Assembly (NCBI GenBank): GCA_964427735.1
Contig: CAYRUS010000001.1
Location: 453,790-517,789, forward strand
Origin: an uncultured Gammaproteobacteria bacterium
Lineage (GTDB): Bacteria; Patescibacteriota; Microgenomatia; UBA8517
Direction of reading: 5' to 3'
Length of the DNA stretch: 64,000 nt
Made by a program: the position numbers and the translations under genes. The first letter of the stretch is position 1. Each line of letters starts with the position of its first letter. Below are positions 4,258 through 53,874 of this stretch, piece by piece. The notes beneath the pieces were generated by a model, which saw only the letters and a program-made list of their open reading frames with translations, was not told the DNA's origin and searched no databases.

Positions 4258-4650
4258 TTAAACATTATTATTTGATTTTAGATAATTCTCTAAAATCAAT
4301 GCTGCTGCAAAAGCGTCTTCTAATTTTTTTCTTCTTTTTTGACCTATCCCTGCTTCAATTGATAGCTCTTGAGCTTCCCTTGTTGTTAAAGTTTCATCAA
4401 AAAGTTTTACATCAATTTCTAATTTTTCTTTTAATGAATTTGCGAAATTTTTTGACTTTTCTGCCATTACTCCCTCAGATACTCCAACAATGACTTTTTC
4501 AACATCTTCTTCTTGAATTAACTTTTCCAATTTTTTGAATAATTCAGATGTGTCCTTATATCTAAGAACACCAAATGGTTCAGCAATAATACCAGAGGAT
4601 ATTGCTAAACCTACTTTTTTTAATCCAAAATCAATTGATAAGACTTGCAT
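4258..4650 (-). CDS. ruvX: Holliday-junction resolvase-like RuvX/YqgF
   Basis: MQVLSIDFGLKKVGLAISS N-terminus and a YqgF-like acidic core. The real start is probably the internal Met (4650) rather than the ORF-track start at 4686. Confidence 0.85.
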   Translation of the reverse strand: MQVLSIDFGLKKVGLAISSGIIAEPFGVLRYKDTSELFKKLEKLIQEEDVEKVIVGVSEGVMAEKSKNFANSLKEKLEIDVKLFDETLTTREAQELSIEAGIGQKRRKKLEDAFAAALILENYLKSNNNV

Positions 4651-5323
4651 TTGCTTGAGTATAGGGGACAATCTTTGCACGCACAACTAAACGCCTTGGT
4701 TTACGAGGATCTCCCGGAGGTGTGCAGGTAACCAAAGAAAGATAAGAACCATCAGTATCTTGTTCTAAAATCTCAATATCTGTTGGCAACACCTCGTATT
4801 TCGTTTCTACTTTGTATTTATAATCAACACCATCATAGTGAACAAAAATATCATCACCATTTTCTAACTTTGGAAGGGTAGAAAAAATGGTTAGATAATC
4901 TTTGGGATTAAAAAAGATAGGCAATACAGAATGCCCAAAAATAACCCCATTACCAATTTTCCCCGGAAGTGCTGTTCCAGGATATTGGATAAGGCTTTCG
5001 CTCAAATCATCTTTCCCAATAGCAACCGTAGCTTTGTTAATTTTTAATTTTGGAATAGTAATAGTAAAGTACTCTACCTTACTATTACTACTATCCTCAT
5101 TCTCTTTTTTACCAAACCAATTGCTTGCTTTAGTTAGATCAGTATTGTTTTGATTGTTTTGTATCTGAGTATTTATTTCAACTAAAGGATTTAATAATAC
5201 CGGATAACTACTCCTAGAAGTAAGTTCATAGCTTAACAAGTTAAATAAAACAACAGTTATCATTATTACTCCGGCAAAACCAGTAAAAAACGGAAATAGT
5301 CTAAAAAACGGCTTTTTACTCAT
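4631..5323 (-). CDS. Sortase-family transpeptidase
   Basis: N-terminal TM segment, GHSVLP His motif and the LVTCTPPG (TLxTC) catalytic-Cys motif. Probable start is the internal Met MSKKPFF. Confidence 0.8.
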   Translation of the reverse strand: MSKKPFFRLFPFFTGFAGVIMITVVLFNLLSYELTSRSSYPVLLNPLVEINTQIQNNQNNTDLTKASNWFGKKENEDSSNSKVEYFTITIPKLKINKATVAIGKDDLSESLIQYPGTALPGKIGNGVIFGHSVLPIFFNPKDYLTIFSTLPKLENGDDIFVHYDGVDYKYKVETKYEVLPTDIEILEQDTDGSYLSLVTCTPPGDPRKPRRLVVRAKIVPYTQANASLIN

Positions 5324-5330
5324 AGCAATA

Positions 5331-7532
5331 CTACCTCTCGGCTGCAACTTCAACAGAAATATTTTTCTTTTGGTAAGGAAGATTGCCTAACCTTCCTGGA
5401 AGTCTGGGTTCAATAATAATCTCAGCTCGAACAAATCCTGGTATCGAGTTCAAATACTCTCTTGCAATATGCGGATACTTACCTGATACTCGATCAGTAA
5501 TCTCATCTGGATTTAGTTCAGGAAGTAGATTGGCAATAATACTTGTCTCCATTTCATAAACTCCATCTTCCTCACCTACATACTTGAATTTAATTTCTAC
5601 TTGCTCATCTTTCAACACATAACCACTAGGCACCTGATTATCAAGGACCTCTCGTGCCAACTGAACTAGCAGATCTTTTTTTACAGATACTCCACTCACT
5701 TCTAATTCTAAATCAAGTTTTAATGAAGATGCCTCATCACCCACTTTGTTACTAAAACCGGTTTTTGTAACTTGTTGGGAAATTGAATCTTTCAAAAAGT
5801 CATTTCCGTCTTCTACTTTTTCTTCCAGTTCTTTAACTGCTTTTTGTGATAGTTCCTTCTCTAATTCCTCTTCTAAAGATTCTATATCACTTTCTGAGAC
5901 TGCGGCAACTTCACGACTTTCTCCTCCTGAAAAATCTTTTTTTGCAACAGCATCTACTTCTGCGGTTGGAAAGTTTCCTACAGAAAACTCTGTACCATTT
6001 GCTAAGTTATAGTCAGAACCAATATCAGTTGCTACTACTTCTACCTCTTGGGCACCTGGTTTTGTAGGTGATAGGGCAGCAGATACAGAGGCTGGTTCTA
6101 CTGTCTCGAATGTCAAGTTATTATCTGAAGTAAGTTTTGTCCCTACTGGTAAACGAATGCTTGAGCTTGTTCCATTACGAACCTCAACAGTTCCTTTGGC
6201 CTTTTCTCCGATTGTTCGTTTGCCTGTAGTCGACTTGGTACGATCCCCAGAAACAGTAGCGCTCATAACTCTACCAGGAATAACATTTTTTTCTATATCT
6301 AAATTACTCGCTTCTGGATCTATGTATACAGTTAATCTATCCTCTAAATTTTGAGGGGAAATAAAAATAGTCAAAGAAGCCTTTGGAATAAAGTACCAGT
6401 AAGCAACTACTGATCCAATTAGTAAAAGAAGTGCAATTATTACAATTGCTAATATTCTCCTCCCTGGGCCAGCAGGAGATTTTGGTTTTTTTACCTTTAC
6501 ACCAGAAAGTTTCGATTTTATAGCAGAAAAAAAAGGAGGAATTGTCAGTTTTCTCTTTTCATTTGTATCTTCTTTTGTAAATTCCTGATCCTCTAACTCA
6601 CCTTCAAGTTCTTCGACAGAGGCAATATTATCGGAATAGTATTTATTTTCATCAGGATTTTGGTCTTCCAAGGATTCATCTGTTATATCTTTACCCACCA
6701 CAAATCCCACATCTCCAACATCCCCTTTAGGGGAGTTTGGATTTCCAGCTACTTCTGTACCAGTATCTATTTTAGAAGTGTTTGCCATTTCAATACCTCC
6801 TGCTAAAGTTACTGCAAATATTTTTTGCTCTGGTTTAAACGTTTCTACTTTTGGCGTGTGCAAAAAAGAAATTTTTTCAGGAGTACTCCAATCAAATTTA
6901 ACCAACTCTTGTCGTGCATCTTCGAGTTCACTATCTTTTGCGTTATAAACTATAAACCTTGATGGGAAAACCTCACCAGAATAAAGTCTTGTCAATCCTT
7001 CTACAACGTCATCAACAAGAGAAACACTTCTTGATACATTTTCTATTCCCTTGTTTTCGCCATTTTTAAATAATGAAACCTCAAGATTGCCTTCTCTTAA
7101 GCCCAAAATTATCCCTGTAAAAGGTACACCATCCTCAGATTTTATGAAATTTGCAATAGCCTCCGGTAAAACTACATAACCTTGTGGATCCAAGGACAAC
7201 TCTTTACATACCTTCTCTAAATCTTTTAAATATTCTCCTTTTATATTTCCTTCAAGTATCCATTGAGAGGAAAGTCCGAAAACCGCTGCAGAAGGATCAT
7301 CTATATCCTCATCTAGATTCTGTACTGCAGAGGACAAGGCTGTATCAACAACACTTATTAGGTCTTCGTTTTCGTCTCGGCTTACAGGCTTGCCCACTGT
7401 TAATACTTTGGATTCTCCTTGATTTATACTCCATATCCCTGCTTGTACCCACGAAGGTTCTATGACAATCGACCAGTAATAGGAGCTTGTCTTTGACTTT
7501 GTCTTCGGCAGTAAAGATGAAAAGTCAACCAT
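5331..7532 (-). CDS. Large bitopic membrane protein. The N-terminal ~350 aa are cytoplasmic and look like a degenerate PilM/FtsA actin fold. A single TM helix follows, then a ~350 aa extracytoplasmic region
   Basis: The N-terminus FSSLLPKTKSK..SIVIEPSWVQAGIWSI aligns by pattern to PilM LSQLFRRKKAVGLDIGSSSVKAVEL, but the DIGSS phosphate loop is replaced. A second pattern GIILGLREGNLEVSLF resembles the actin adenosine motif. Acidic linker; TM helix ILAIVIIALLLLIGSVVAYWYF. Confidence 0.55.
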   Translation of the reverse strand: MVDFSSLLPKTKSKTSSYYWSIVIEPSWVQAGIWSINQGESKVLTVGKPVSRDENEDLISVVDTALSSAVQNLDEDIDDPSAAVFGLSSQWILEGNIKGEYLKDLEKVCKELSLDPQGYVVLPEAIANFIKSEDGVPFTGIILGLREGNLEVSLFKNGENKGIENVSRSVSLVDDVVEGLTRLYSGEVFPSRFIVYNAKDSELEDARQELVKFDWSTPEKISFLHTPKVETFKPEQKIFAVTLAGGIEMANTSKIDTGTEVAGNPNSPKGDVGDVGFVVGKDITDESLEDQNPDENKYYSDNIASVEELEGELEDQEFTKEDTNEKRKLTIPPFFSAIKSKLSGVKVKKPKSPAGPGRRILAIVIIALLLLIGSVVAYWYFIPKASLTIFISPQNLEDRLTVYIDPEASNLDIEKNVIPGRVMSATVSGDRTKSTTGKRTIGEKAKGTVEVRNGTSSSIRLPVGTKLTSDNNLTFETVEPASVSAALSPTKPGAQEVEVVATDIGSDYNLANGTEFSVGNFPTAEVDAVAKKDFSGGESREVAAVSESDIESLEEELEKELSQKAVKELEEKVEDGNDFLKDSISQQVTKTGFSNKVGDEASSLKLDLELEVSGVSVKKDLLVQLAREVLDNQVPSGYVLKDEQVEIKFKYVGEEDGVYEMETSIIANLLPELNPDEITDRVSGKYPHIAREYLNSIPGFVRAEIIIEPRLPGRLGNLPYQKKNISVEVAAER

Positions 7533-9455: not shown

Positions 9456-9746
9456 CTATACTTGATCACTAATCTCATCTTTAATAGCGACAGTTTCTCC
9501 TTGGAAAGGTTCGCCCATACCCATTTTTTCTACTTCCTTTTGTCTTTTAAACATTCCAACTATGCTTGTTATTTTTTCTGGTTTAATTAATCCACCACCT
9601 AATATTGCATCTTCAAGAATTGAATTCATTCTTTTAACAGACCTTCTCAAATCCATTATCACCAAAATAACTTGGACTCCTACAATAAGCAGCAATACTG
9701 TTAAAACAGTTACAACTATAATTAATACTTTTTGTATTGGATCCAT
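9456..9746 (-). CDS. Small single-pass membrane protein
   Basis: 96-aa ORF with an N-terminal TM helix and a charged C-terminus. Confidence 0.45.
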   Translation of the reverse strand: MDPIQKVLIIVVTVLTVLLLIVGVQVILVIMDLRRSVKRMNSILEDAILGGGLIKPEKITSIVGMFKRQKEVEKMGMGEPFQGETVAIKDEISDQV

Positions 9747-10372
9747 TAGGTATTGTCTAATACTACATTTCTTTTAAGTATTGTTTCTTTTCCAGATCGT
9801 GAAACCGCCTTGACAACTATCTCCTGAGCCTCCCCAAGTTTGATATCTACCTCAAATCTCCCTTCTTCATTCAAAATAACCGGTTGGTTATTAACAATTA
9901 CAGTTGTATCTGGATCTGTTTTCCCACTAACCCGAGTTTCTTTTTTCACTGCTATACCTTCTAATGGTGTATACAACTCTAATTCCGGAGGGCTAGAAAA
10001 CTCTTTGTATTGTACCAATAAATATCCACCAACCAGTAAAGCAATACTTAATGTACCTGTCAAAAATGTAAGCTTGGGGCTCCAACTAAATTTTTGTCTT
10101 ATTTCAGGTGGTTTTTTTGGATTTAAAGGAATCTCCTTTGGCGGATAATCCCTACGTAATAAAGCAGTGGCTTTTTGAGTATCAACTCCCACAGAAGAGG
10201 CAATATTCTTAACAAATCCTGATACTACTGGAAACTCTGGTAAATCATTCCAGTCTTCTTTTTCTATAGCATTAAGAAATTCTTTTTTAATTTTTGTTTT
10301 TTCCTCAACATCTTCAAGCTTTAGACCTCTGCTTTCTCTTGCGTTTTTTAGTGTTTGTCCTACAGTAACCAT
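9746..10372 (-). CDS. rodZ: RodZ-like cytoskeleton protein (N-terminal HTH, TM helix, C-terminal domain)
   Basis: XRE-type HTH MVTVGQTLKNARESRGLKLEDVEEKTKIKKEFLNAIE, then a Pro/Lys linker, a TM helix and a beta-rich C-terminal domain. Confidence 0.6.
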   Translation of the reverse strand: MVTVGQTLKNARESRGLKLEDVEEKTKIKKEFLNAIEKEDWNDLPEFPVVSGFVKNIASSVGVDTQKATALLRRDYPPKEIPLNPKKPPEIRQKFSWSPKLTFLTGTLSIALLVGGYLLVQYKEFSSPPELELYTPLEGIAVKKETRVSGKTDPDTTVIVNNQPVILNEEGRFEVDIKLGEAQEIVVKAVSRSGKETILKRNVVLDNT

Positions 10373-39562: not shown

Positions 39563-40120
39563 ATGGCTGCCCAAAAATCAAAACAAATCAACTTACTTCC
39601 CAAGAGTAGCTTTGACGATTCCCCTTTTGGTAGAGTTTTAGTTTGGCTCACTACAACCTTCAGAGTAATGGTCATTATAACCGAGCTAATTGTACTAGCT
39701 GCGTTTCTATCTCGTTTTTGGCTTGATGCAAGAAATTCTGATCTAAATACTGAAATCAAACAAAAACAGGCACAAATACTTGCTTCTGCAAATTTTGAAA
39801 ATGAATTCAGACAAACCCAAAAAAAATTAGATATTTATTCTCAATTAATCAAAAACGAAGGTCTATTACAAGAAACAATAACAGCAATCCAAAATTCTCT
39901 GGTACCAGAGACATACTTAACACGAATTGCTTTTAGTGAAAATAACACATTAACAATAGAAGGAATTTCTGCTACCGAGTTGGGAATTGCTCAATTTGCT
40001 ACTAACCTTAAAGCAAAAAGTGGTATAAAAAACGCATATATTAAAGAGGCTAATTCAAATAGCGATAGTGGATTATCAACAGAATTTGTACTGGAAGCCC
40101 TACTAGAGAAAGAAAATTAG
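39563..40120 (+). CDS. pilN: PilN-like type IV pilus alignment protein
   Basis: Diagnostic N-terminal INLLP motif (KQINLLPKSSF), a single TM helix, and a coiled-coil plus periplasmic-type domain. 185 aa. Confidence 0.7.
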   Translation: MAAQKSKQINLLPKSSFDDSPFGRVLVWLTTTFRVMVIITELIVLAAFLSRFWLDARNSDLNTEIKQKQAQILASANFENEFRQTQKKLDIYSQLIKNEGLLQETITAIQNSLVPETYLTRIAFSENNTLTIEGISATELGIAQFATNLKAKSGIKNAYIKEANSNSDSGLSTEFVLEALLEKEN

Positions 40121-40124
40121 CATC

Positions 40125-40817
40125 ATGCAAGTAAGCTGGAAAAAAGACTACAATCGATATAGAAATTATTTTCTTGACGTTTATACGAAATACAGAAAGA
40201 AAAAAGATATTATGATCTTTTTGGAAATTCTGTTATCTTTGTTTACAGTCTCTATTTTGGCAATGTTTGCCTTAAAACCGACTGTTATTACTATTATTGA
40301 ACTAGTAAAGGAAATTCGAACAAAAGAAGAGCTTGTAGAAAAAATGGATCTTAAAATCAGAAATTTATCCACAGCCCAGTCACTTTACTCAAGAGAGTCT
40401 CGAAGAATCGACCTATTAAATCAATCTCTCCCTAACCAACCCAATGCAGATACTTTTCAAAAACAGTTAAGCGCGGTTTTTGCAAGAAACTCTGTTACTT
40501 TATCGACCACAACATGGGATCAATTTAACCTTCTTGGAAACAGAGTAAACACAAACACTCAAAATAATACAATTGATGAAACAGCAACTGCAATCACTTT
40601 AACAGTAACCGGCCAAGGGGACTACTCATCCGTTAGGAATCTTATGTCAGATCTTGAAAAGCTTAGACGACCAGTAATTATAGACACACTAGTAACCACT
40701 CCCGAAACAAGCGAAGAAAGCCAAACTATACTTGTTAATATCGGTGGAAAAGTACTTTATATTGACCCTCAAAAGGATATTCAAAACCCTGTTCAGACGG
40801 AAGAGACAGAATTATGA
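40125..40817 (+). CDS. PilO-like protein (TM helix, coiled coil, C-terminal domain)
   Basis: Its position after pilN, its size and its topology fit PilO. Direct sequence similarity is weak. Confidence 0.5.
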   Translation: MQVSWKKDYNRYRNYFLDVYTKYRKKKDIMIFLEILLSLFTVSILAMFALKPTVITIIELVKEIRTKEELVEKMDLKIRNLSTAQSLYSRESRRIDLLNQSLPNQPNADTFQKQLSAVFARNSVTLSTTTWDQFNLLGNRVNTNTQNNTIDETATAITLTVTGQGDYSSVRNLMSDLEKLRRPVIIDTLVTTPETSEESQTILVNIGGKVLYIDPQKDIQNPVQTEETEL

Positions 40818-41203
40818 AAAAAGACGCACCAAATATTGTAACTATCGCCATCATGTCTTTAATTACAGTGTTTTTATGGGTTGGATTTAGTATTTATAGA
40901 ACAATAACAAAGGAGGCTGCTCCTATTGTTGAAGAAACAGTGTTAAGAGACATTGATCCAAATCTTAACATTCAAGTACTATCCCAGATGGAGCAGAGGC
41001 TTCACATTGAAGAACCAGAGTTGTCAAACTTAGTTCAAAGTATTGAGTCACAATTACCTATAGACACCCAAATAGATGGAGAGACCCAAGATAGTACTCC
41101 ATCAGCAGAATTAAACCAAACTCCAGAATCAACAGTTGATGATGATAACGAAGATGAAATAATAGATGAAGAACAAGACCTACTTGAGGAAGAAAATGAA
41201 TAA
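40814..41203 (+). CDS. Small single-pass membrane protein with a strongly acidic C-terminal tail
   Basis: TM helix IVTIAIMSLITVFLWVGF, ending DDDNEDEIIDEEQDLLEEENE. Confidence 0.45.
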   Translation: MKKDAPNIVTIAIMSLITVFLWVGFSIYRTITKEAAPIVEETVLRDIDPNLNIQVLSQMEQRLHIEEPELSNLVQSIESQLPIDTQIDGETQDSTPSAELNQTPESTVDDDNEDEIIDEEQDLLEEENE

Positions 41204-42611
41204 CACCCAAGAAAACCCACCATCACCAAAAGAGGAGAAGGTTAATATACTTAACTCTGATATACCTACTCCCAAGCCACTAATGTTAAAAAGGCAAAAG
41301 ATGCCTACGGTATTTGGTGTTGCTGTATTGTTAATAGGTCTCGTCACAGGAATTGTGCTAGTACAAAGAGAACAGAACCTTGGCACAGAGGCAACAGATG
41401 AAGGTCAACCAGCTGATGTCAGAGTGACAAATATAACTGACTCATCATTTACAGTAAACTGGACTACCCAAACAGAAACACCAGAGTATGTTCTTTGGGG
41501 TAAAGACAACGATTTAACCAGCACAGGAAGCGACAACATAACTTCCAACGGAACTGTACACTCTGCAAACATCACAGGGTTATCCGCACAAACCACATAT
41601 AGTTTTAAAATTGGATCAGGAGATAAAGTTTTTGACAACAATGGACAACCCTGGGAAGTTACAACAGGACCTGTACTGCAAAACTCTTCAGTCGTATCAC
41701 CTATTTCTGGAACAATTACCTTGGCAAATGGACAACCGGCAAGTAATGCAATTGTTTACATAAATATAGGTGGTGCTTCACCAGTGTCCACAATTACTAC
41801 AAGTAATGGTAATTGGATATTGCCATTAACCACAATTCGATCTAGAGATTTAAATTCATACTTGTCCATTGATGATCAAAATACTGTTATGGAAATATTC
41901 GTTCAAGCAGGTCGACATGGTATCGCTACAGCAACAAGTTACCCATGGACATCAAGACCTTTACCAACCTTATCATTAGGAAGCAATGAAGATTTTAGAA
42001 ATTCCAGTAATACTGACTCCTCAACTCCATCATCTGAAATTAATTTACCTGAAGAAACAAACACAAATTCAAGATTTAATCTAGAAAGTACAAACTCAAA
42101 TGAAGATAACACTGTAACATTAGAAAGCATTGATGAAGGTGAAGTCTTTTCCACAACACAACCTCAATTTTTTGGAGAAGGATCCCCAGGTACCACACTC
42201 ACTATTACAGTCGAATCCACACCTATGACTGACAACATATCCGTGGGAACAAACGGAACTTGGAATTGGTCATTACCAAACCAACTAGAAGAAGGCAGTC
42301 ACAAGGTAATAATTTCTTGGAGAGATGGAAGCGGCATATTAAGAACAATTACCAGATCATTCACAGTTGAGGTTTCTGGAAGCACAGCTTTATTAGCAGC
42401 GACACCAACCCCAACAATAAAACCCACTTCAACACCTAAGCCTACCCCCACACTGACCTCCACACCAAAACCCACTCCTGATGTCCTTGCATCTTCATCA
42501 CCATTACCCGATGCAGGAATTTCAGTATATACTTTAAATCTTGCCTTAACTGGTTTAGTATTGTTATTGATGAGTAGCTTTGCTATTGTAGTTATAAGGA
42601 ATAAAAAATAA
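41166..42611 (+). CDS. Surface protein: N-terminal signal-anchor, a fibronectin type III domain, Ig-like region, Pro/Thr linker, and a C-terminal sortase sorting signal (LPDAG, hydrophobic stretch, then RNKK)
   Basis: FN3 pattern DVRVTNITDSSFTVNWTT...YSFKI. C-terminus LPDAGISVYTLNLALTGLVLLLMSSFAIVVIRNKK. Confidence 0.7.
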   Translation: MKNKTYLRKKMNNTQENPPSPKEEKVNILNSDIPTPKPLMLKRQKMPTVFGVAVLLIGLVTGIVLVQREQNLGTEATDEGQPADVRVTNITDSSFTVNWTTQTETPEYVLWGKDNDLTSTGSDNITSNGTVHSANITGLSAQTTYSFKIGSGDKVFDNNGQPWEVTTGPVLQNSSVVSPISGTITLANGQPASNAIVYINIGGASPVSTITTSNGNWILPLTTIRSRDLNSYLSIDDQNTVMEIFVQAGRHGIATATSYPWTSRPLPTLSLGSNEDFRNSSNTDSSTPSSEINLPEETNTNSRFNLESTNSNEDNTVTLESIDEGEVFSTTQPQFFGEGSPGTTLTITVESTPMTDNISVGTNGTWNWSLPNQLEEGSHKVIISWRDGSGILRTITRSFTVEVSGSTALLAATPTPTIKPTSTPKPTPTLTSTPKPTPDVLASSSPLPDAGISVYTLNLALTGLVLLLMSSFAIVVIRNKK

Positions 42612-42613
42612 CC

Positions 42614-43957
42614 ATGCCCAATCAAGATGACAATCAAAATCCACCTGTTTCTGATGAAATGAAACCGCCTGTTCCTCCAATCGTTGACGAGGAAAAAAAC
42701 ACTAATACTCCTAATACATCAAAACCTGAAAGTAGTACAAAAGATAATGCTCCACCACCACCTCCAGTATTTTCGGTAGGAAACCAGCCATTAGATAGCA
42801 ATACATCTGATATTCCCAACCCCCCACCTGCTGCCTCTGATGTGGTAGGAACTCCCAGCTCTGGTTCCCCAACAAAGAACTTTTTTACAAAAAAAGTTGT
42901 AGCAACATTCTTGGGAATACTCTTATTGGTAGGGGGAGTAATATCCGGGATAATCTTAGTACAAAGACAACAGGACATTAGAAAACAAGCCGGATCAATT
43001 GGAGGCTTAGCCTGTACTTCTCCTAAAGGCATCATTGTCACAAGCAAATCTCAACCTGGCTTACCAGGTGACCTTGGTTATAAGCCAATACCTCAAACAT
43101 ATAATGTTGGTGAAACTGTAAATTTTCAGGTACAAGTCAAAAATGAATCAAATAATCGTGTTTCAGATCATTATCATTTTTTTGCTCAAAAAGTGGTTGA
43201 AGCACCTCGAGGGCAAACTCCAAATCCTAACCTAACAGAACCTGAAATGTATAGTATCCACAATGATCCAAGCAGGGGAACATCTCAAGTCACCAAATTC
43301 AACAGTGGCAATCAACCATTTACTCTTGAACCAGGGGCAACTCAATACCTTAAGTATTCGTGGAAACCAACTGAATGCGGTTTTTATCAGATCGATATGG
43401 GTATTGAGGACTTTTTCTATGTAAACCGCGATAATTCTAGCCAAACCTGTCAAATTACTCAAACACCAGACCGAGATGCAGTAGCTGCCGCCGGATTTAT
43501 AAAAGTAGTTGGTTGTGATGTTAATCCAACAGCTACACCAACAATAAGACCGACCTCTACACCACAACCAACGCCTACACCAACAACAAGACCAGGCGTG
43601 ACGCCAACACCTACAGCCACACCAGCAAAAACCACACCACCATCTGCACCACAAGGCGGAGCATGTTTTAATATTAGAACTTATGACCTAGAAGATAATG
43701 AACTAAGTATCCAAGATCTTTCAAACTTACAGCCAGGAGATCGTATAAAATTTGTTGTAGCAGGAGTAGCAACGCCTAATGGAACTTATGATCGTGCAAG
43801 ATTTAGAGTAACCACAGGTGATATTATTCCAAGCTGGAATGAAGTAACAACTTCAGATGAAGATTCGACATTTTATTACATATATACAATTCCTGATGAT
43901 GCTGAAACTTTCAAAGTAGAAGCACAAATTCACCACAGTGTTAGTGGTTGGTTATAA
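42614..43957 (+). CDS. Secreted or surface protein with a Pro-rich N-terminus, signal-anchor and Pro/Thr linker
   Basis: Its anchor ...GGVISGIILVQRQQ resembles the anchor of the preceding protein. No C-terminal sorting signal. Confidence 0.55.
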   Translation: MPNQDDNQNPPVSDEMKPPVPPIVDEEKNTNTPNTSKPESSTKDNAPPPPPVFSVGNQPLDSNTSDIPNPPPAASDVVGTPSSGSPTKNFFTKKVVATFLGILLLVGGVISGIILVQRQQDIRKQAGSIGGLACTSPKGIIVTSKSQPGLPGDLGYKPIPQTYNVGETVNFQVQVKNESNNRVSDHYHFFAQKVVEAPRGQTPNPNLTEPEMYSIHNDPSRGTSQVTKFNSGNQPFTLEPGATQYLKYSWKPTECGFYQIDMGIEDFFYVNRDNSSQTCQITQTPDRDAVAAAGFIKVVGCDVNPTATPTIRPTSTPQPTPTPTTRPGVTPTPTATPAKTTPPSAPQGGACFNIRTYDLEDNELSIQDLSNLQPGDRIKFVVAGVATPNGTYDRARFRVTTGDIIPSWNEVTTSDEDSTFYYIYTIPDDAETFKVEAQIHHSVSGWL

Positions 43958-44661
43958 AAACTATGAAAATGAATATTAAAACAATAATAATTGGACTTTC
44001 GACCGTAGTCCTTGGTGGAGTAGCAATCTTTACTGCTGTTAGACTATATCAGCTAAGAAGTGAACCCATCGCTCCCAACGCCCCGCAAAGTCAGCCACTG
44101 GCACAGCAAGGAGGTCTTTGTGGAGGAATAACTCAAATATCATGTGCAAGTGGTTTTACCTGTATCTATGAAAACGGTAGCACTATTGCTCCTCATCCTG
44201 ATGCTACCGGAACTTGTCAACCTCAAAACCAAGGGGCAAATGAAGGAGAAATGTGTGGAGGCATTGCAGGAATTGACTGTGCAAAAGGTCTCGTTTGTGA
44301 TTATGGCTCAGGTAACCTATCAGCACCCAACCCTGATGCTACTGGGGTATGTGTATCTGAAACAAACAAATCTGCCTGTGAGGCAATTACTTTTACTATC
44401 ACCAAAGCTACTCCTACACCCACAGCAACTGCTAATGTAACTAGCACGCCAACGCCTACACCTACAGATACCCCTGCTGGTGAGGATCCAACACCTACAG
44501 CAGCATCAACATTGAAACCAACATCTACACCAAGTCAGCCATTGGCTGAAACTCCAACTCCAGCTCCTAGCCTGCCAACAGCTGGTGTAGGATCACCTAC
44601 AATTATCGGACTAGGCGCTGGAATGTTAATCTTGCTCTTCTCACTTATTCTTGCATTGTAA
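43948..44661 (+). CDS. Surface protein with two Cys-rich ~40-aa repeats, a Pro/Thr linker and a C-terminal LPTAG sorting signal
   Basis: Repeats CGGITQISCASGFTCIYENGSTIAPHPDATGTC and CGGIAGIDCAKGLVCDYGSGNLSAPNPDATGVC. C-terminus SLPTAGVGSPTIIGLGAGMLILLFSLILAL. Confidence 0.65.
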   Translation: MVIKTMKMNIKTIIIGLSTVVLGGVAIFTAVRLYQLRSEPIAPNAPQSQPLAQQGGLCGGITQISCASGFTCIYENGSTIAPHPDATGTCQPQNQGANEGEMCGGIAGIDCAKGLVCDYGSGNLSAPNPDATGVCVSETNKSACEAITFTITKATPTPTATANVTSTPTPTPTDTPAGEDPTPTAASTLKPTSTPSQPLAETPTPAPSLPTAGVGSPTIIGLGAGMLILLFSLILAL

Positions 44662-47224: not shown

Positions 47225-49681
47225 TTACCAGGTTTTAAACCAATGATAGCTTTCATCAAGCCAAACTGGTACTGTTATGCCTGTGTAGCGAGGTAAAAAG
47301 TATATAAAAGCAACCATAGCTAAACTAAAAAACCACAGTCTCACTTTTTTATATTTTGCAAGAATAAATCCTAACAAAATTGCTAAAAAGGGAATGGACG
47401 GCAAGTAATGGTACAAAAACATAATTCTAGGCGAGGCTGCCCAAGGAACAAAAAATATTGCATACGAAAAAACTATTAGAGCAATCTTTTTAGCCCACTC
47501 ATTCTTTAAAGAAAAGTTTTTAATAACCAAATATACACATACCAATACCGCTATCAATCCTCCCCAAAAAACTATTGGATTCCCCATTATGTAAATATTG
47601 GAAACAACATTGTCAACAACTCCACCGGCATAAACCCAAATTGGTCTTAATAAAATTGGCCAACTCCACCATGGTGAAGTAAAAGGATGCTCTGCCTCCA
47701 AACGTGTGTGATACCACCACATTTGCTTTTGAACTCCAATAAATATGTCAAAACCGTGACCACTAGTGAACATTGGGATATAACTTGCCAAATAAACAAG
47801 AGGAGGTAACAAAATAAACCATATATAATTTAGTCTAAACTTTTTCCCTAGCAACAAAAATGCAATAGGAAAAATCGGCAATGCCCACAAAGCACTCCAT
47901 TTGGAAGCAAGAGCTAAACCATAAGCTATTGCTGAAAAAGCATATTTATCTTTAATAAATAGATAAAAAGACAATAAAACAAAAAATAATAAATAAGCAT
48001 CATTCATTCCAATTCTGCTTAGCCCTAGAGGCAAACCATCAAGAGCAAATACCGCAGAGGAGAAAATACCAACGTCTCTATTAAAAAGTTCCTTAGCGAT
48101 TAAATAAACCAATAAAACACTTCCTGTACCTAAAATTGCAGCGGGGAAACGCCAAGCAAAGGCCTGTTCTCCAAATATAGCCATTGAGAACCACATACCT
48201 TCTTTTGCAAGTGGAGGGTGAGTCCATTCATAGGCAAAACCTTCGGGATGGGGATTCCACCATTCCCAAGCCATTGGATTCCCTTGAAGCATTTGTCTTG
48301 CTGTAAAAGCATGATAAACCTCATCAAAGTACTCGTTCTTTGGTTCACTTAAACTTACTAATCTGACAAACAAAGATCCCAATAATACAAGCACTAAGAG
48401 AATTTTAATTTGCTTGTCTGTAAACACTTCATTAACAACTAGCTTTTCTGATTTTTTTGTCCCTGGATCTAAATTAAAAGAAAGAGAAAAAAGCTTACTG
48501 GTAGTGATTTTCACTTTTGAAGCATAAACCAAAATAGCCAATCCTAATACATTAATAATAGAAAATGCTTTCGATACAAAGACAGGAAAGACTTCTTTGA
48601 AATTGTTAGTTATCCAAACATAAGCGTAATATAGGTTTGCTAAATAACCTACAGATAAAGCAAGATAAACAAAAGCTGCTACTTCATAAAATGCAGATAC
48701 AATAGCCAGTGGGGCAAGAGCTGGAAGCAAATGTCTTTCATGAAGACGAGTAAAAAATACAAAGTTTGCCAAAAACAATACGGAAAGCAAAAAGTAGCTG
48801 GATTTTTCTTCTTTTTTTAATTTTATGGCCGTCAATATAAAAATAAATACTGTCATTAAATAACCAAAAAACTTATAAACAGGATTGTCGGGTCGCCAAA
48901 AGCCAAATATGCCCCAGAAATTAAAAGCATTTACACTGGTATATGGGTACTGATTTAAAGTTGTGTTAATTCTTTGAACTATAAACTCCATCAGTGATCC
49001 ATTATTCCAAAAAGGAACAAAGGCAAGAGCAAAAATAACTCCAGATAATAAAATATAAGTGGCAACATTAACTAATCTTGTCTTTCTTGTATACATTAAA
49101 TAAAGTACGACAAGTGCTACTAAAGCAGCTTGTGGCTTGACTAGTGTGCCAATAGCAAGGAAAAAAGCTGATAAGTACAAATTACTACCAAAAGAAAATA
49201 TAGTAAGTAAAGAAAAAAGTGCAGTTAAAGAGTCCACTTGTCCCCACAATGCCGAGTTTGCAAAAACTGCCGGGTTAAATAACCACATTCCACTAGCTAC
49301 TAATGCCTTTTTAGAAGAGGTATACTTTTTAACTACTAGGTAAACAAGATATCCGATCAAGACATCAGAAAAAATTGCGGGCAATTTATACAGTATGACT
49401 TCTGGTATTAAAATGGCTTGATTTATTTTCCCCAATAACCACAAAACATAAAGGTATCCTGGCAAATAATCAGACCAATTACTATAAAAATTCCTAAACC
49501 CATTTTCTGCAAGGTTATTACTCCAACTCAGAAAAGTGTTAAAATCAAGCTCAAGAGTACCAAAAGGAGACATAAAAATCCTTAAGGCCAGCGCTGCCAA
49601 GAGCAAAACCAAAATATTTTTATCAAATTTTATATCTCTAAAAAACCTCATAAATTTTAACTTCTTCATTAGTATACACAT
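47225..49681 (-). CDS. Large polytopic membrane glycosyltransferase: a GT-C-like N-terminal half fused to a PMT/ArnT-like (PMT_2) C-terminal half
   Basis: The second half carries YFDEVYHAFTARQM, matching the DE loop motif of PMT/ArnT-type GT-C enzymes. About 20 TM helices; 818 aa. Confidence 0.65.
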   Translation of the reverse strand: MCILMKKLKFMRFFRDIKFDKNILVLLLAALALRIFMSPFGTLELDFNTFLSWSNNLAENGFRNFYSNWSDYLPGYLYVLWLLGKINQAILIPEVILYKLPAIFSDVLIGYLVYLVVKKYTSSKKALVASGMWLFNPAVFANSALWGQVDSLTALFSLLTIFSFGSNLYLSAFFLAIGTLVKPQAALVALVVLYLMYTRKTRLVNVATYILLSGVIFALAFVPFWNNGSLMEFIVQRINTTLNQYPYTSVNAFNFWGIFGFWRPDNPVYKFFGYLMTVFIFILTAIKLKKEEKSSYFLLSVLFLANFVFFTRLHERHLLPALAPLAIVSAFYEVAAFVYLALSVGYLANLYYAYVWITNNFKEVFPVFVSKAFSIINVLGLAILVYASKVKITTSKLFSLSFNLDPGTKKSEKLVVNEVFTDKQIKILLVLVLLGSLFVRLVSLSEPKNEYFDEVYHAFTARQMLQGNPMAWEWWNPHPEGFAYEWTHPPLAKEGMWFSMAIFGEQAFAWRFPAAILGTGSVLLVYLIAKELFNRDVGIFSSAVFALDGLPLGLSRIGMNDAYLLFFVLLSFYLFIKDKYAFSAIAYGLALASKWSALWALPIFPIAFLLLGKKFRLNYIWFILLPPLVYLASYIPMFTSGHGFDIFIGVQKQMWWYHTRLEAEHPFTSPWWSWPILLRPIWVYAGGVVDNVVSNIYIMGNPIVFWGGLIAVLVCVYLVIKNFSLKNEWAKKIALIVFSYAIFFVPWAASPRIMFLYHYLPSIPFLAILLGFILAKYKKVRLWFFSLAMVAFIYFLPRYTGITVPVWLDESYHWFKTW

Positions 49682-51572
49682 TTCTCATATATGGTGAGTT
49701 ATCAAAATTAGCCTCTGCTTCCGGATATTCTCTCTTTTCAGCATTTCCATAATAAATATAATCAAATGAATATTTTGATTTTAATAGATCAAGATAAGCT
49801 TTATTATCTGGATTCGAATAGAACTTTTCGATTTCTTCAGATCTGACAAACACGTTATCTTCACCAGAGTTATATCCGTGGCTATGTGGCCAATTTATAT
49901 AAGAAAGAATTCTTAAACGTCCTGCAACTTGTGTGATTGGAGAATGAACAGTCGGTAATCCAACATAAACTGATTTTTGCGGTGTTTGCTGCCTCATCCA
50001 AATTCCTGCTTCATATTCTGGCAAAGTGTACGCCTGATTTTTATTTATAACACTCCAAAGCACAACCAAGAATGAACTCGAAATAGTAGTTAAAATCACC
50101 ACTATAGAAACAGCTTGTCCAAGAATCCTTTTTTGCTTAACTAAATCTGATAATACCCACCCTGTAATAACTGCAACCGGAATTATCATAAAGTAAAAAA
50201 ACTTAAACATATCTTTTTCATAGATAGTAAAAGTCACACTGTAAGGGATTATAAACAAGATTAAACCGAAGAAAAATAAATACCAAAAGTGTTTATTTTT
50301 AAAATCTTTTGCTAAAACTACCTTGACAGGTGCAATTAAAAATATCACAAAAGGTAAGCCAAAATTATTTAATATAAAACTAAGATGCCAATGGAAGCTT
50401 CTATCACTATTCCAATTTCCAAAACGAAAAGTTTCTTCCACCAAGTTAATCAATGAATTCCCATTAGTTTTAGTACCTAAAAACATTGGAGAAATAATTA
50501 AAATAGGAAGTATAAAAACAATAAGTAGTTCTATATTCTTTCTCAAACCTTTTATCGAAAAAAACAACAAATTAACCAAGCCAAACAATATAAAGCCAAC
50601 AATAAATGCAAAAAACTGGAATTTACTTACTAAGGCTGTTACAACTCCTGCAAGTAAAACTCTCTTATAATCCTTTTTTTCATACCCCGTGGACAAAACA
50701 TACGCAATAATTGCAACTGAAGGTAAACCAACCATCATGGGCCGGTTTTGTAAAAAATAATCAACCATTGGAGCCATCTGATACAAACCATTTGACTCTA
50801 TGCTGTAACCTCTATAAAGCAAGTCAATTATTGCAATAAAAATCGGTCTCTGACCAAGCTGAGCATTAACATCGGTTATAAATTTTATATAAATCCAATT
50901 GCTAAAAAATGCACCGATAACCGAAGAAATGATTGCTGCAACTTTATCTTTAAAAAGCAAATACGAAAAAGAATATATGCTAAAAGCAAAAGTAAAAATA
51001 AAAATAGGATTTGTATAAACTAAAACACGAGGAAAAAATTCAGACTTTAAAACATTAATTATTGCAGAGTGAAAATCTGAAAAATAATAATAAGTCATGA
51101 GCTTACCTGCATAGTATGGAGCTTGAGGAGGGAAATTACCTTCGGCAATACTTTCTATAATCCCAATGTGCATTGCTGTATCTTGCCAGTTAACAGCAGA
51201 TAAAACCACATAGTTATTATAAACAGTAAAAATTGCTGGATACAAAGCAAAAAACACTATGCCTAAACTTAAAATGGACACCACCCAAATAAATGTATGC
51301 TCTTTAAAAAAAGTAAGTTTAGGCTTTTTTATGTCAATTAAAAAAACCAGTGGTAAAAATATGGACATAGCAAATAAAACATAAAACCTGTTTAGTTTAA
51401 AAAGGGAAGCTACAAAATAGACTACATATGTTGAAAATAATACACTTAAAATAATGTATAAAGGAATTTTCTCAAGTGGCTCAAGTTTTTTGAAAAAAGC
51501 CTCTATAATAAGAACACCAGGTATAAAAAAAATAAACAAAAAACCTACAACAGCTAATAAATGATTAACCAT
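49638..51572 (-). CDS. Polytopic membrane protein, probably a GT-C-type glycosyltransferase
   Basis: 644 aa with many TM helices and the loop NWQDTAMHIGIIESIAEGNFPPQAPYYAG. This is a family-level guess only. Confidence 0.5.
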   Translation of the reverse strand: MVNHLLAVVGFLFIFFIPGVLIIEAFFKKLEPLEKIPLYIILSVLFSTYVVYFVASLFKLNRFYVLFAMSIFLPLVFLIDIKKPKLTFFKEHTFIWVVSILSLGIVFFALYPAIFTVYNNYVVLSAVNWQDTAMHIGIIESIAEGNFPPQAPYYAGKLMTYYYFSDFHSAIINVLKSEFFPRVLVYTNPIFIFTFAFSIYSFSYLLFKDKVAAIISSVIGAFFSNWIYIKFITDVNAQLGQRPIFIAIIDLLYRGYSIESNGLYQMAPMVDYFLQNRPMMVGLPSVAIIAYVLSTGYEKKDYKRVLLAGVVTALVSKFQFFAFIVGFILFGLVNLLFFSIKGLRKNIELLIVFILPILIISPMFLGTKTNGNSLINLVEETFRFGNWNSDRSFHWHLSFILNNFGLPFVIFLIAPVKVVLAKDFKNKHFWYLFFFGLILFIIPYSVTFTIYEKDMFKFFYFMIIPVAVITGWVLSDLVKQKRILGQAVSIVVILTTISSSFLVVLWSVINKNQAYTLPEYEAGIWMRQQTPQKSVYVGLPTVHSPITQVAGRLRILSYINWPHSHGYNSGEDNVFVRSEEIEKFYSNPDNKAYLDLLKSKYSFDYIYYGNAEKREYPEAEANFDNSPYMRNVYTNEEVKIYEVF

Positions 51573-52788: not shown

Positions 52789-53874
52789 TTAATTATTAAG
52801 TAAATTAGACACCCAATCATGAATCTCGCTCCAGTCACCAGATCTAGGAACAAATACATACAAATTATCATAATCTTCACTTGGCTCTGGATTTTCTAAA
52901 AGCGTCTCATCTATCACTTCTGAATGAATATTTTCTTTTGCTACATATGCAAATCTAGCCACTGCTGCAGCCTCTTCTTGAGAGAAATCTGTTTCTACAT
53001 TGTTCTCTGCAATACCAATAAGCTCTTTTATCTTTACTGGAGAAGCAACAACCTCTGCACTAATCAATTTATCCCTCAGTGCCATGATTACTTTTTGTTG
53101 CCTGCGACTTCTAGCTGTGTCTGTACCTTCTTCACCTTCAGCATGCCTGGATCTTACAAATTTAAGAGATGTTTCTCCATCCATATGCGTCAATCCTGGT
53201 TCAAAAGTTATTGTTTCATATCGACATCTTAATTGAATATCTCCTTCACAATTATCATTTTCTCTGCCCGGAATAGGGTACATATGATCGGTAAAACCAT
53301 TGTCAATAACTACATCAATACCTCCAACAACATCAATTGCACCTTTAAAAGCCTCAAAATCAACTACAACACCATAATGAACCGGCAGACCTACGATTTC
53401 TTCAACTGTTGCTTTAGCAAGCAATAGACCTCCATTTTCTTGCTTTTGATTTCCCCAATAATAAATACTGTTGAGTTTTGCTCTAAGTTCAGAAATCCAA
53501 ATATCACGAGGGAGAGAAATAATAACAATATCTCCACCATCATCTGGTACAGATACAAACATTATTGTATCTGTCAGGTCAGGTGCTTCGTGTCCCGTGC
53601 CTCCTTTCCCTAAAACTAAAATATTGGTCCTGCCTTCAAATGATTTGACTTCACCACTTCTTGCAAATACAAACTCATACAAAGCGTTTGTATATTTTGT
53701 TACTCCTGCTTCCTTTAGATAATTTTTAGCCAAAAAGGCAGTAATCAATATAAATAACACTAGACCTCCTGCAACAAAAAGCCGTATAGCCTTGTTGTGA
53801 ACTAAAATCCTTCGTTTTAGTTTTGATAATTTGATATAAAGTTTTCCTTTTTTGGTATTTGTTTTGTTGTCCAT
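52789..53874 (-). CDS. LCP (LytR-CpsA-Psr) family phosphotransferase
   Basis: TNILVLGKGG...DTIMFVSV...IISLPRD core motifs of the LCP domain, after an N-terminal TM helix. Confidence 0.85.
   Translation of the reverse strand: MDNKTNTKKGKLYIKLSKLKRRILVHNKAIRLFVAGGLVLFILITAFLAKNYLKEAGVTKYTNALYEFVFARSGEVKSFEGRTNILVLGKGGTGHEAPDLTDTIMFVSVPDDGGDIVIISLPRDIWISELRAKLNSIYYWGNQKQENGGLLLAKATVEEIVGLPVHYGVVVDFEAFKGAIDVVGGIDVVIDNGFTDHMYPIPGRENDNCEGDIQLRCRYETITFEPGLTHMDGETSLKFVRSRHAEGEEGTDTARSRRQQKVIMALRDKLISAEVVASPVKIKELIGIAENNVETDFSQEEAAAVARFAYVAKENIHSEVIDETLLENPEPSEDYDNLYVFVPRSGDWSEIHDWVSNLLNN

Follow-up and report, generated by a model that had tools for sequence, protein, structure and literature searches.

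The 64,000-nucleotide stretch of DNA analysed here in full (the window; positions 453,790 to 517,789 of contig CAYRUS010000001.1, from an uncultured bacterium that GTDB places in the Microgenomatia of the Patescibacteriota) carries three adjacent, co-directional genes, termed A, B and C (Table 1), whose products are predicted surface proteins sharing an N-terminal module of ~35 residues. The module consists of a basic cluster, then a 21-residue glycine-rich transmembrane (TM) helix and then the signature L-V-Q-x-x-Q-[DE]-I-R-x-x-A. It looks like a docking or sorting tag and could be a lineage-specific N-terminal export or anchor signal with a conserved motif, which could prove categorically new if a dedicated pathway exists. 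Full-text literature searches found neither the motif nor its operon described, and no model of Pfam or NCBIfam covers the module. Judging from sequence, we tentatively favour the possibility that it serves as a dedicated signal-anchor, or docking helix, for a membrane platform formed by the PilN-like, PilO-like and X proteins encoded immediately upstream, a reading that leaves considerable room for doubt.

A conserved N-terminal module shared by adjacent genes

The initial annotation had drawn attention to similar anchor-like ends in the three proteins, and all three strings are present: LLIGLVTGIVLVQREQ in A (aa 55-70, nt 41328-41375), LLLVGGVISGIILVQRQQ in B (aa 103-120, nt 42920-42973) and AIFTAVRLYQLRS in C (aa 26-38, nt 44023-44061). 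The pattern VQR[EQ]Q occurs only twice in a six-frame translation of the whole window, each time directly behind the TM helix of A or B; in shuffled proteins it turned up 0.0065 times on average, two or more occurrences being reached in 0 of 2000 shuffles. As a definition this pattern is real but too narrow. What had been noted as “LVQR-Q” is the beginning of a polar, Gln/Arg-rich segment of ~10-11 residues behind the Gly-rich helix, and the conserved core comprises L-[VY]-Q-x-x-Q-[DE]-[IL]-R-x-x-A together with that helix and the basic cluster. The block common to A and B (K42-A76 and K93-A126, respectively) exceeds the string first noted and closes in both proteins with Q-x-x-Q-[DN]-[IL]-x-x-x-A. 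C is only loosely related to the two: it shares with them only L-Y-Q-x-R-[SQ]-E and scores only 7-10 bits against the A/B profile, and its N-terminus is a distant variant with a conserved family consensus of its own.

The genes are adjacent, and a resemblance restricted to such a pair might be put down to chance or to a recent tandem duplication. This explanation is refuted, and we attach virtually no weight to it. Apart from the shuffling result, the likeness of A and B at the protein level is confined to the first ~60 residues (32% aa identity, E = 9e-7), and the DNA coding for their shared block is 55% identical; since the two are alike in the module alone and their DNA has diverged to this extent, a recent tandem duplication or gene conversion is excluded. 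Moreover, every operon position retains its own variant of the module across many genomes.

The anatomy of the module was taken from a 44-column profile of the N-terminal block of the B homologues, whose middle regions are unrelated and whose N-terminal block is almost invariant. Its 141 ungapped hits give the B-type profile KKK-F-G-G-K-K-[VI]-I-A-T-I-L-G-I-L-L-L-V-G-G-V-G-A-G-V-I-L-V-Q-Q-Q-Q-D-I-R-E-K-A, in which L29, Q34 and A40 are conserved in 100% of the sequences, L19 and G26 in 96%, R37 in 94%, I13 and G15 in 92% and T12 in 91%. Conservation breaks off abruptly behind the invariant A40, the next columns being noise rich in Cys, Gly, Ser and Thr. Lys or Arg occupies columns 1-3 and 7-8 in 70-90% of the sequences, the uncharged stretch spans 21 residues (columns 10-30), and three small-xxx-small pairs are present (A11xxxG15, G21xxxA25 and G22xxxG26). 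The charge distribution, with KKK..KK on the N-terminal side of the helix, predicts an N-in, C-out orientation. Most B-type proteins possess a Pro-rich acidic tail before the helix (median 75 aa, maximum 177 aa), which usually begins with MPD[QDE] and has a DIPPV[IV]T[TS] box immediately before the lysines. An AlphaFold2 (AF2) model of B, built with 101 orthologues, contains a single continuous helix at aa 93-126 that stops exactly at the invariant Ala (core pLDDT 81-84), together with a disordered cytoplasmic tail, a low-confidence middle and a confident C-terminal beta-sandwich. Related variants are the consensus of the A orthologues, MKKNKIPTILGILLL.GxAAGxLLVQNxQIF[KR]LGA[SA]P, that of a second clade, ..SIP[LV]AVLLV[QK]QRQEIRKEAA, and that of the C type, KKKIVTxLIVIATVxLAGVAIFTAxRLYQLRQExVAPTAP.

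Some leads were dropped. A conserved helical stripe (columns 12, 15, 19, 22, 26, 29, 33, 36 and 40; mean information 3.78 vs 2.99 bits) was abandoned, its periodicity at 100-103 degrees not being significant (p = 0.13-0.18). The best PDB sequence match, the TM/juxtamembrane helix of ErbB2 (E = 0.002), has the opposite topology and was judged a compositional coincidence, and weak NCBIfam matches to the N-termini of FliL are compositional only.

Searching with the profile beyond the window, as the initial annotation had proposed, revealed that the motif is by no means limited to the A/B pair. An exhaustive search of 1.84 billion cluster representatives returned 1,169 protein clusters at E<=1e-3 and 153 at E<=1e-10, the module of B itself scoring 74.6 bits. 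Since 130 of the 153 top hits carry the B-type C-terminal domain and are thus mostly B orthologues, the 1,169 mainly reflect many genomes and not many families per genome. All carriers with a name are listed as “hypothetical protein” of Patescibacteria, the Microgenomates group or Shapirobacteria. A word-indexed homologue search with the same profile (551 candidates, 1 match) was uninformative, and a genome scan with full-length B confirmed no relatives because its ectodomain is too variable. The module is attached to unrelated ectodomains (fn3/Big_13, B type, cohesin, dockerin, SdrD_B and small Cys-rich proteins), and in the protein P0007 a C-type N-terminus is joined to a B-type C-terminal domain; given that modules combine with differing ectodomains and C-termini, the module acts as a portable cassette. 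By a rough estimate, ~390 kb of unselected flanking sequence contain ~5 distinct non-operon motif genes. Three contigs with Microgenomates-type operon or motif genes (L004, L007 and L008) are titled 'uncultured Gammaproteobacteria' in third-party annotation (TPA) records, probably a mislabel. In the window, an HTH_25 protein (9746-10372, minus strand) has one TM helix that also ends in ..GGYLLVQYKE; at 2.3 bits it is probably unrelated to the module.

Placement behind pilN and pilO and a possible docking function

Custom hidden Markov models (HMMs) of PilN, PilO, X and the module, run over 48 sequences, detected 98 motif open reading frames (ORFs), 91 of them unique. Among the 62 motif genes whose context could be evaluated (an operon was visible, or the upstream sequence extended for 6 kb or more), 54 stand directly behind pilN-pilO-X, two to five in tandem, in loci that were sampled by way of the motif. 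The operon order is S20-pilN-pilO-X-A-B-C, followed by PMT and LytR-CpsA-Psr (LCP) genes, and the same order is found in every locus long enough, namely in L001, L002, L010 and L012, in seven species-representative genomes labelled Microgenomates, Woesebacteria or Patescibacteria, and in many metagenome contigs. The PilN-like protein of the window has the INLLP N-terminus by which PilN binds PilM, the L010 orthologue of the PilO-like gene carries an unmarked PilO call, and X has no family match in Pfam or NCBIfam. In a closed Microgenomates genome, the components listed for the single type IV pilus (T4P) locus include PilM and not PilN or PilO (PMC7143001), which fits with pilN and pilO residing in the operon studied here. 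At one locus (L002, 7526-8362) the PilO product measures 278 aa and has an X-like acidic tail, no separate X being called; this is either a PilO-X fusion or an assembly frameshift.

Conservation was compared as mean pairwise identity within the same 8-10 syntenic genomes. The module of B is 66% identical, as opposed to 18% for its variable ectodomain and 50% for its C-terminal domain; that of C is 68% identical (10 orthologues) vs 42% for the rest of the protein; and that of A is 52% identical vs 49% for its fn3 region. The TM region of PilN (69%, 10 genomes) likewise surpasses its periplasmic part (38%), as does the TM helix of PilO (60% vs 40%), and the TM helix of X is 46% identical. In the LCP protein, which served as control, the N-terminal TM anchor is 20% identical vs 54% for the catalytic domain, and the sorting-signal helix at the C-terminus of A is 39% identical; on the same scale DnaK reaches 79% and MurJ 60%. 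The earlier claim that the motif is more conserved than a generic signal peptide is therefore borne out by modules at 52-68% against an LCP anchor at 20%. By these figures the membrane helices of the bitopic operon proteins appear to be their best-conserved parts, a pattern that would be expected of helices packing against partners and not of merely hydrophobic ones. The PilN-like TM helix (aa ~38-52 in the window, and orthologues) also contains a conserved Glu (..IITELIV.., ..VTEVVV.., ..LVEMIV..), whose burial in the membrane suggests pairing with a polar or basic residue of another helix.

In the mechanism that we propose, the module would act as a type II (N-in, C-out) signal-anchor, made up of the cytoplasmic basic cluster, the Gly-rich TM helix and a Gln/Arg-rich extension of that helix as far as the invariant Ala. 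The helix would direct the protein to the Sec translocon and insert it, and would then hold it, at least temporarily, in a specific intramembrane helix bundle, whose likeliest partners would be the bitopic PilN-like, PilO-like and X proteins encoded upstream. For B, which lacks any further anchor, the module helix would remain the tether, and sortase would take over A, C and the many carriers with a C-terminal [LIV]Px[TSA]G signal, their N-terminal helix being later removed or kept. Docking on PilN/PilO/X is preferred because of the 54/62 adjacency, the equally conserved PilN and PilO helices, the small-xxx-small pairs and the precedent of GspC, GspL and GspM, whose single TM segments interact with each other (PMC3815138); the TM helix of PilO, too, can dock other membrane proteins via a small-xxx-small motif (10.1101/2020.10.17.343988). 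Given that B combines a conserved cytoplasmic tail with the lack of any other anchor, its helix would most simply be a permanent signal anchor, and a conserved tail of such length (median 75 aa) is incompatible with an ordinary signal peptide. That the helix docks, on which partner, and what then becomes of it are inferences from the observed module, its spread, synteny and conservation and its helical prediction. The initial annotation had connected the motif with a PilN/O-like scaffold or an unknown peptidase; adjacency to pilN-pilO-X and the matching TM conservation lend substance to the scaffold, whereas no peptidase gene is present in the operon.

Comparison with known signals and competing explanations

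As had been stated at the outset, the module is no class III prepilin signal: none of A, B and C matches N_methyl (PF07963) at E<=0.1, KK and not Gly precedes the helix, and position +5 is Leu or Ile. Nor does it contain a twin-arginine (Tat) consensus, its n-region being KKKFGGKK, or a lipobox, there being no Cys in columns 1-41 and Cys only in the variable part. The YSIRK/GXXS motif occurs in no module, and association with sortase substrates is all that the two have in common. With Sec type I signal peptides it shares the positively charged n-region; in place of their short h-region (~7-15 residues) it has the 21-residue stretch within a continuous 34-residue AF2 helix. As to LPXTG substrates, A scores 14.5 bits vs a TIGR01167 cutoff of 15.9, C-type signals are without a basic tail, and a sortase gene is present in the window. 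The Pam pili of the Candidate Phyla Radiation (CPR) comprise pilins with an N-terminal beta-sandwich, a donor strand and a truncated Ig C-terminal domain, employ PapD-like chaperones and are encoded in an operon beside ATP synthase genes (bioRxiv 10.64898/2026.03.03.709456). No link with them was found: the operon context differs (dnaK, murJ and rpsT flank the window operon, and it has no chaperone-like gene), and Foldseek of B against the PDB gave generic beta-sandwich matches only. Because the defining features of the known classes are absent and the same organisms also possess classical signal peptides (SSNSYA|QV in L007, for example), the module would represent a second, distinct N-terminal signal class in these organisms.

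The chief alternative, doubtful in our view yet deserving serious attention, holds that the module is a specialised cleavable Sec signal peptide, akin to YSIRK/GXXS in function, which would be cut near the invariant Ala and its helix degraded; the conserved residues would then steer the protein to a secretion site or govern its rate, and adjacency to pilN and pilO would be mere synteny. It draws support from the sharp halt of conservation at a small residue, from the short classical n-region (MKK...) of many carriers and from the A-type boundaries (LGA|SP, LKA|SP), which obey the -3/-1 rule, 21 of the 76 sequences of the loci set (mostly A type) fitting it at the invariant Ala. Furthermore, about half of the C-terminally complete carriers have a sortase-type end (36/81 by regular expression and 5 more by eye), with L030:3226-4050 (LPETG) reaching the TIGR01167 cutoff of 15.9 bits; dockerin carriers should bind wall-anchored cohesins; and YSIRK/GXXS is an established case of LPXTG proteins whose signal peptides bear a conserved motif (PMC5962339). 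The 21-residue hydrophobic stretch and the 10-residue helical c-region, however, do not suit a cleavable signal, and in the B type only 4 of 142 sequences fit the rule at the invariant Ala, position -3 being Glu or Lys in 131 of them. Up to eight residues from the Ala, sites that obey the rule are no commoner than in a control window 30-40 residues downstream, and in C the Ala is followed by Pro. Finally, B orthologues carry a conserved cytoplasmic tail of 75-177 aa and have no other anchor, and ordinary signal peptides are in use in the same organism.

It is also conceivable, albeit decidedly improbable, that the module is the mirror image of a C-terminal sorting signal (basic cluster, TM helix, outer-face signature) and the substrate of a dedicated membrane peptidase or transpeptidase, which would cleave it at the Ala or close by. 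The tripartite layout with invariant residues just outside the membrane and a sharp boundary, the many unrelated ectodomains and the poor fit to signal peptidase I would agree with this; no candidate enzyme, however, is encoded in or beside the operons and stand-alone loci examined. We judge as no less improbable an anchor without any partner, in which the Gly-rich helix and Gln-rich extension would drive homo-oligomerisation or set the distance from the membrane and which would have spread by domain shuffling within one lineage. The small-xxx-small pairs, the recombination of modules with differing ectodomains and the match to the self-dimerising helix of ErbB2, a chance likeness of type, are consistent with such an anchor, whereas the placement behind pilN-pilO-X and the matching conservation of the PilN and PilO helices would go unexplained. 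That A, B and C are divergent pilin-like subunits whose helix is handled by the T4P machinery is already largely refuted and very improbable indeed: pilN and pilO are adjacent, the helix is loosely pilin-like in length and its polar continuation QQDIREKA is loosely reminiscent of the pilin sequence YQDYTARA, but Gly at -1, Glu at +5 and a match to N_methyl are all missing, the tails reach 177 aa and sortase signals are present.

Docking on PilN/PilO/X, the reading that we favour, has to contend with several points that weigh against it. The loci were sampled via the motif itself, so that the operon association of 54/62 is over-sampled and biased, and 8 of the 62 motif genes (three in L007 and one each in L022, L031, L033, L038 and L046) have no pilN or pilO within 8-10 kb; a partner, if any, would thus have to act genome-wide. 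The stand-alone carrier of L033, small, rich in Cys and with a PIPxTG end, is encoded beside cysS, and in L007 SdrD_B/CarboxypepD_reg carriers are clustered beside cohesin proteins. The generic-anchor control of the conservation comparison is a single protein (LCP), and the conservation of the module lacks significant helical periodicity. Boundaries of the A type (F[KR]LGA|SP) are compatible with signal peptidase I, and about half of the carriers also bear a sortase signal, some of them having dockerins. In known systems, proteins with a sortase signal lose their N-terminal signal.

The closest functional analogues of the module would be GspC-type connectors and YSIRK/GXXS signals, and it seems to be a member of none of the known systems. 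Like the GspC/PilP-type connectors on GspL/GspM (equivalent to PilM-N/PilO), the carriers are N-in bitopic proteins, encoded together with a PilN/PilO-type pair, whose outer domains face outward. Unlike those connectors, they have no sequence or domain homology to them (no HR/PDZ), several are sortase substrates, and their host is monoderm-like and without a secretin. With YSIRK/GXXS they share a conserved motif in the export signal of a subset of surface proteins, many of them sortase-anchored, that exists beside ordinary signal peptides (PMC5962339), whereas the motif of the module differs in lying behind the hydrophobic helix and not at the n/h border, in its unrelated sequence, in the membrane-spanning length of the helix, in the long cytoplasmic tails of the B type and in having no canonical cleavage site. 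LPXTG/sortase, PEP-CTERM/exosortase and GlyGly-CTERM/rhombosortase likewise combine a signature motif at the outer face with a TM helix and a basic cluster, are lineage-restricted and occur on many unrelated surface proteins, although the module is N-terminal, has the parts in reverse order and comes with no cognate enzyme that we could find. Class III prepilin signals, too, form hydrophobic helices at the N-terminus of proteins whose genes lie near those of a pilus platform; they differ by G-1/E+5 and N_methyl, and the carriers by their long tails and by the lack of a detectable pilin fold. The accessory-Sec signal peptides of serine-rich-repeat adhesins possess a KxYKxGKxW motif, a Gly-rich h-region and a long N-terminal region, and their cargo is glycosylated and wall-anchored. 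A long region before the hydrophobic core and conserved core glycines are common to them and the module, whose cargo would likewise be glycosylated and wall-anchored; unlike them, the module has no KxYKxGKxW and a Pro-rich, acidic tail; no SecA2/SecY2 was seen in the loci.

A bolder extension of the docking reading, which we consider unlikely, would make pilN-pilO-X-A-B-C the missing outer half of the T4P platform in these CPR bacteria, which have a wall and no secretin. The helix would plug A, B and C into PilN/PilO/X, sortase would tie A and C to peptidoglycan in replacement of PilP/PilQ, and other adhesins (cohesin, dockerin, Cys-rich) would have acquired copies of the plug for display at the same site; in a variant of this scheme the plug would be an N-terminal sorting signal with an enzyme of its own.

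Carrier proteins, gene neighbourhood and implications

Table 1. Coordinates and properties of the window features
Feature	Coordinates	Strand	Basis and remarks
Sortase	4631..5353	-	Pfam Sortase 3.1e-23; TIGR01076 55 bits vs cutoff 39.35
PilN-like bitopic protein	39563..40120	+	Pfam PilN PF05137 31.8 bits vs cutoff 22.8; KQINLLP N-terminus; syntenic in >20 loci
PilO/GspM-like bitopic protein	40125..40817	+	Pfam PilO 21.2 bits, slightly below cutoff 22; NCBIfam GspM weak
X, small bitopic protein	40814..41203	+	N-terminal TM helix, acidic tail; custom HMM; between pilO and A in nearly every operon
A	41166..42611	+	N-terminal module, fn3/PAP_N, CarboxypepD_reg, Big_13, C-terminal LPDAG + TM + RNKK
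A module	41289..41393	+	KRQK-MPTVFGVAVLLIGLVTGIVLV-QREQNLGTEA
A sortase-type sorting signal	42504..42608	+	LPDAG, TM, basic tail; TIGR01167 14.5 bits vs cutoff 15.9
B	42614..43957	+	Pro-rich cytoplasmic tail aa 1-92, module, hypervariable Cys-containing ectodomain, PT linker, beta-sandwich aa 351-447
B module	42890..42991	+	KK-VVATFLGILLLVGGVISGIILV-QRQQDIRKQA; profile match, AF2 helix aa 93-126
C	43948..44661	+	Module-like N-terminus, Cys-rich repeats, PT linker, LPTAG + TM ending LILAL
C module	43966..44073	+	KMNIKTIIIGLSTVVLGGVAIFTAVRLYQLRSEPIA; distant variant
C sorting signal	44572..44658	+	LPTAG-VGSPT-TM-LILAL, without basic tail
PMT-family protein O-mannosyltransferase-like gene	47225..49681	-	PMT_4TMC, PMT_2, PMT; adjacent in L001, L002, L010 and L012 too
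644-aa multi-pass protein	49638-51572	-	Between PMT and LCP genes; no Pfam match
LCP protein	52789..53874	-	Syntenic; N-terminal TM anchor used as conservation control

The longest ORF of A shares 38 nt with X, and its orthologues start with MKKNK directly before the helix, immediately past the stop of X; the start at 41166 is therefore probably over-called, an in-frame ATG at 41196, 41283 or 41301 being likelier. A start at 41196 would give A a short, B-like Pro-rich tail. C probably starts at the ATG at 43963. B is without a C-terminal anchor, and its middle (42992-43663, aa 127-350) is hypervariable among orthologues, with 18% mean identity, varied lengths and varied Cys patterns, a pattern suggestive of an exposed domain under diversifying selection. 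In a Foldseek comparison with the PDB, the C-terminal domain of the B model proved to be a generic Ig-like beta-sandwich that weakly resembles Wzt glycan-binding domains, a result of no consequence for the motif.

The window sortase probably acts on the C-terminal ends of both A and C. This enzyme reaches the cutoff of no class model, and sortase is near-ubiquitous in Microgenomates (PMC6744442). Sortase-type ends of the carriers follow the scheme [LIV]Px[TSA]G, ..PT.. and TM helix, and those of the A orthologues read LPETG, IPDSG or PESG followed by LTPT, a TM helix and K/R. Two kinds of signal can be discerned, an A type ([LIV]P[DE][ST]G-xLTPT-TM with a conserved SIMGIG, plus a basic tail) and a C type (LPxAG-[VT]SxPT-xxG-TM ending in ...LALAL, no basic tail), examples of which exist beyond the window (L001 12252-12494, P0010 and P0047); the window has only one sortase gene. 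Motif carriers further include Cohesin+LPETG and fn3+Dockerin_1 pairs (L030 1180-2652 and 3226-4050; P0144 in L011), and in L007 (9468-14507) proteins with dockerin-like C-termini, none matching Pfam Dockerin, alternate with small cohesin proteins that are TM-anchored and without the motif. Such carriers would amount to a cellulosome-like display system in a CPR bacterium.

As to the neighbourhood, the minus strand encodes dnaJ, dnaK, grpE, hrcA and murJ, and the plus strand rpsT, pilN, pilO, X, A, B, C and an EamA-family gene, with UvrD and FemAB genes on the plus strand downstream of the LCP gene. In L010 and L012 a DUF2298 protein occupies the position of the multi-pass protein between the PMT and LCP genes. 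A, B and C all have Pro/Thr-rich linkers, which together with the syntenic PMT gene suggests that they are O-glycosylated surface proteins. A 733-aa protein (5331-7532, minus strand) that overlaps the sortase gene contains an internal TM helix and gives a weak Baseplate_J-like match (25 bits). Of the 32 2-kb bins of the window (1-64000), 28 have a negative GC skew (cumulative -3.87), with coding on either strand, and a continuous G/C strand disparity has been reported in some Microgenomates of the order UBA1400 (PMC7143001).

CPR/Patescibacteria live attached to other cells, and the ways in which they position and retain the proteins that contact their hosts are poorly understood. The module marks a searchable set of Microgenomates surface proteins, amounting to more than 1,000 clusters, all annotated as hypothetical, and links this set physically to the pilN/pilO genes; the hypervariable ectodomain of B, set between two conserved ends, suggests diversifying pressure at the host interface. 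If the module is indeed a docking or sorting tag, it would make it easier to inventory the surface proteins of uncultured lineages, would point to a non-pilin role for the PilN/PilO platform and would possibly reveal a new N-terminal sorting pathway or a wall-spanning part of a pilus machine in bacteria without a secretin.

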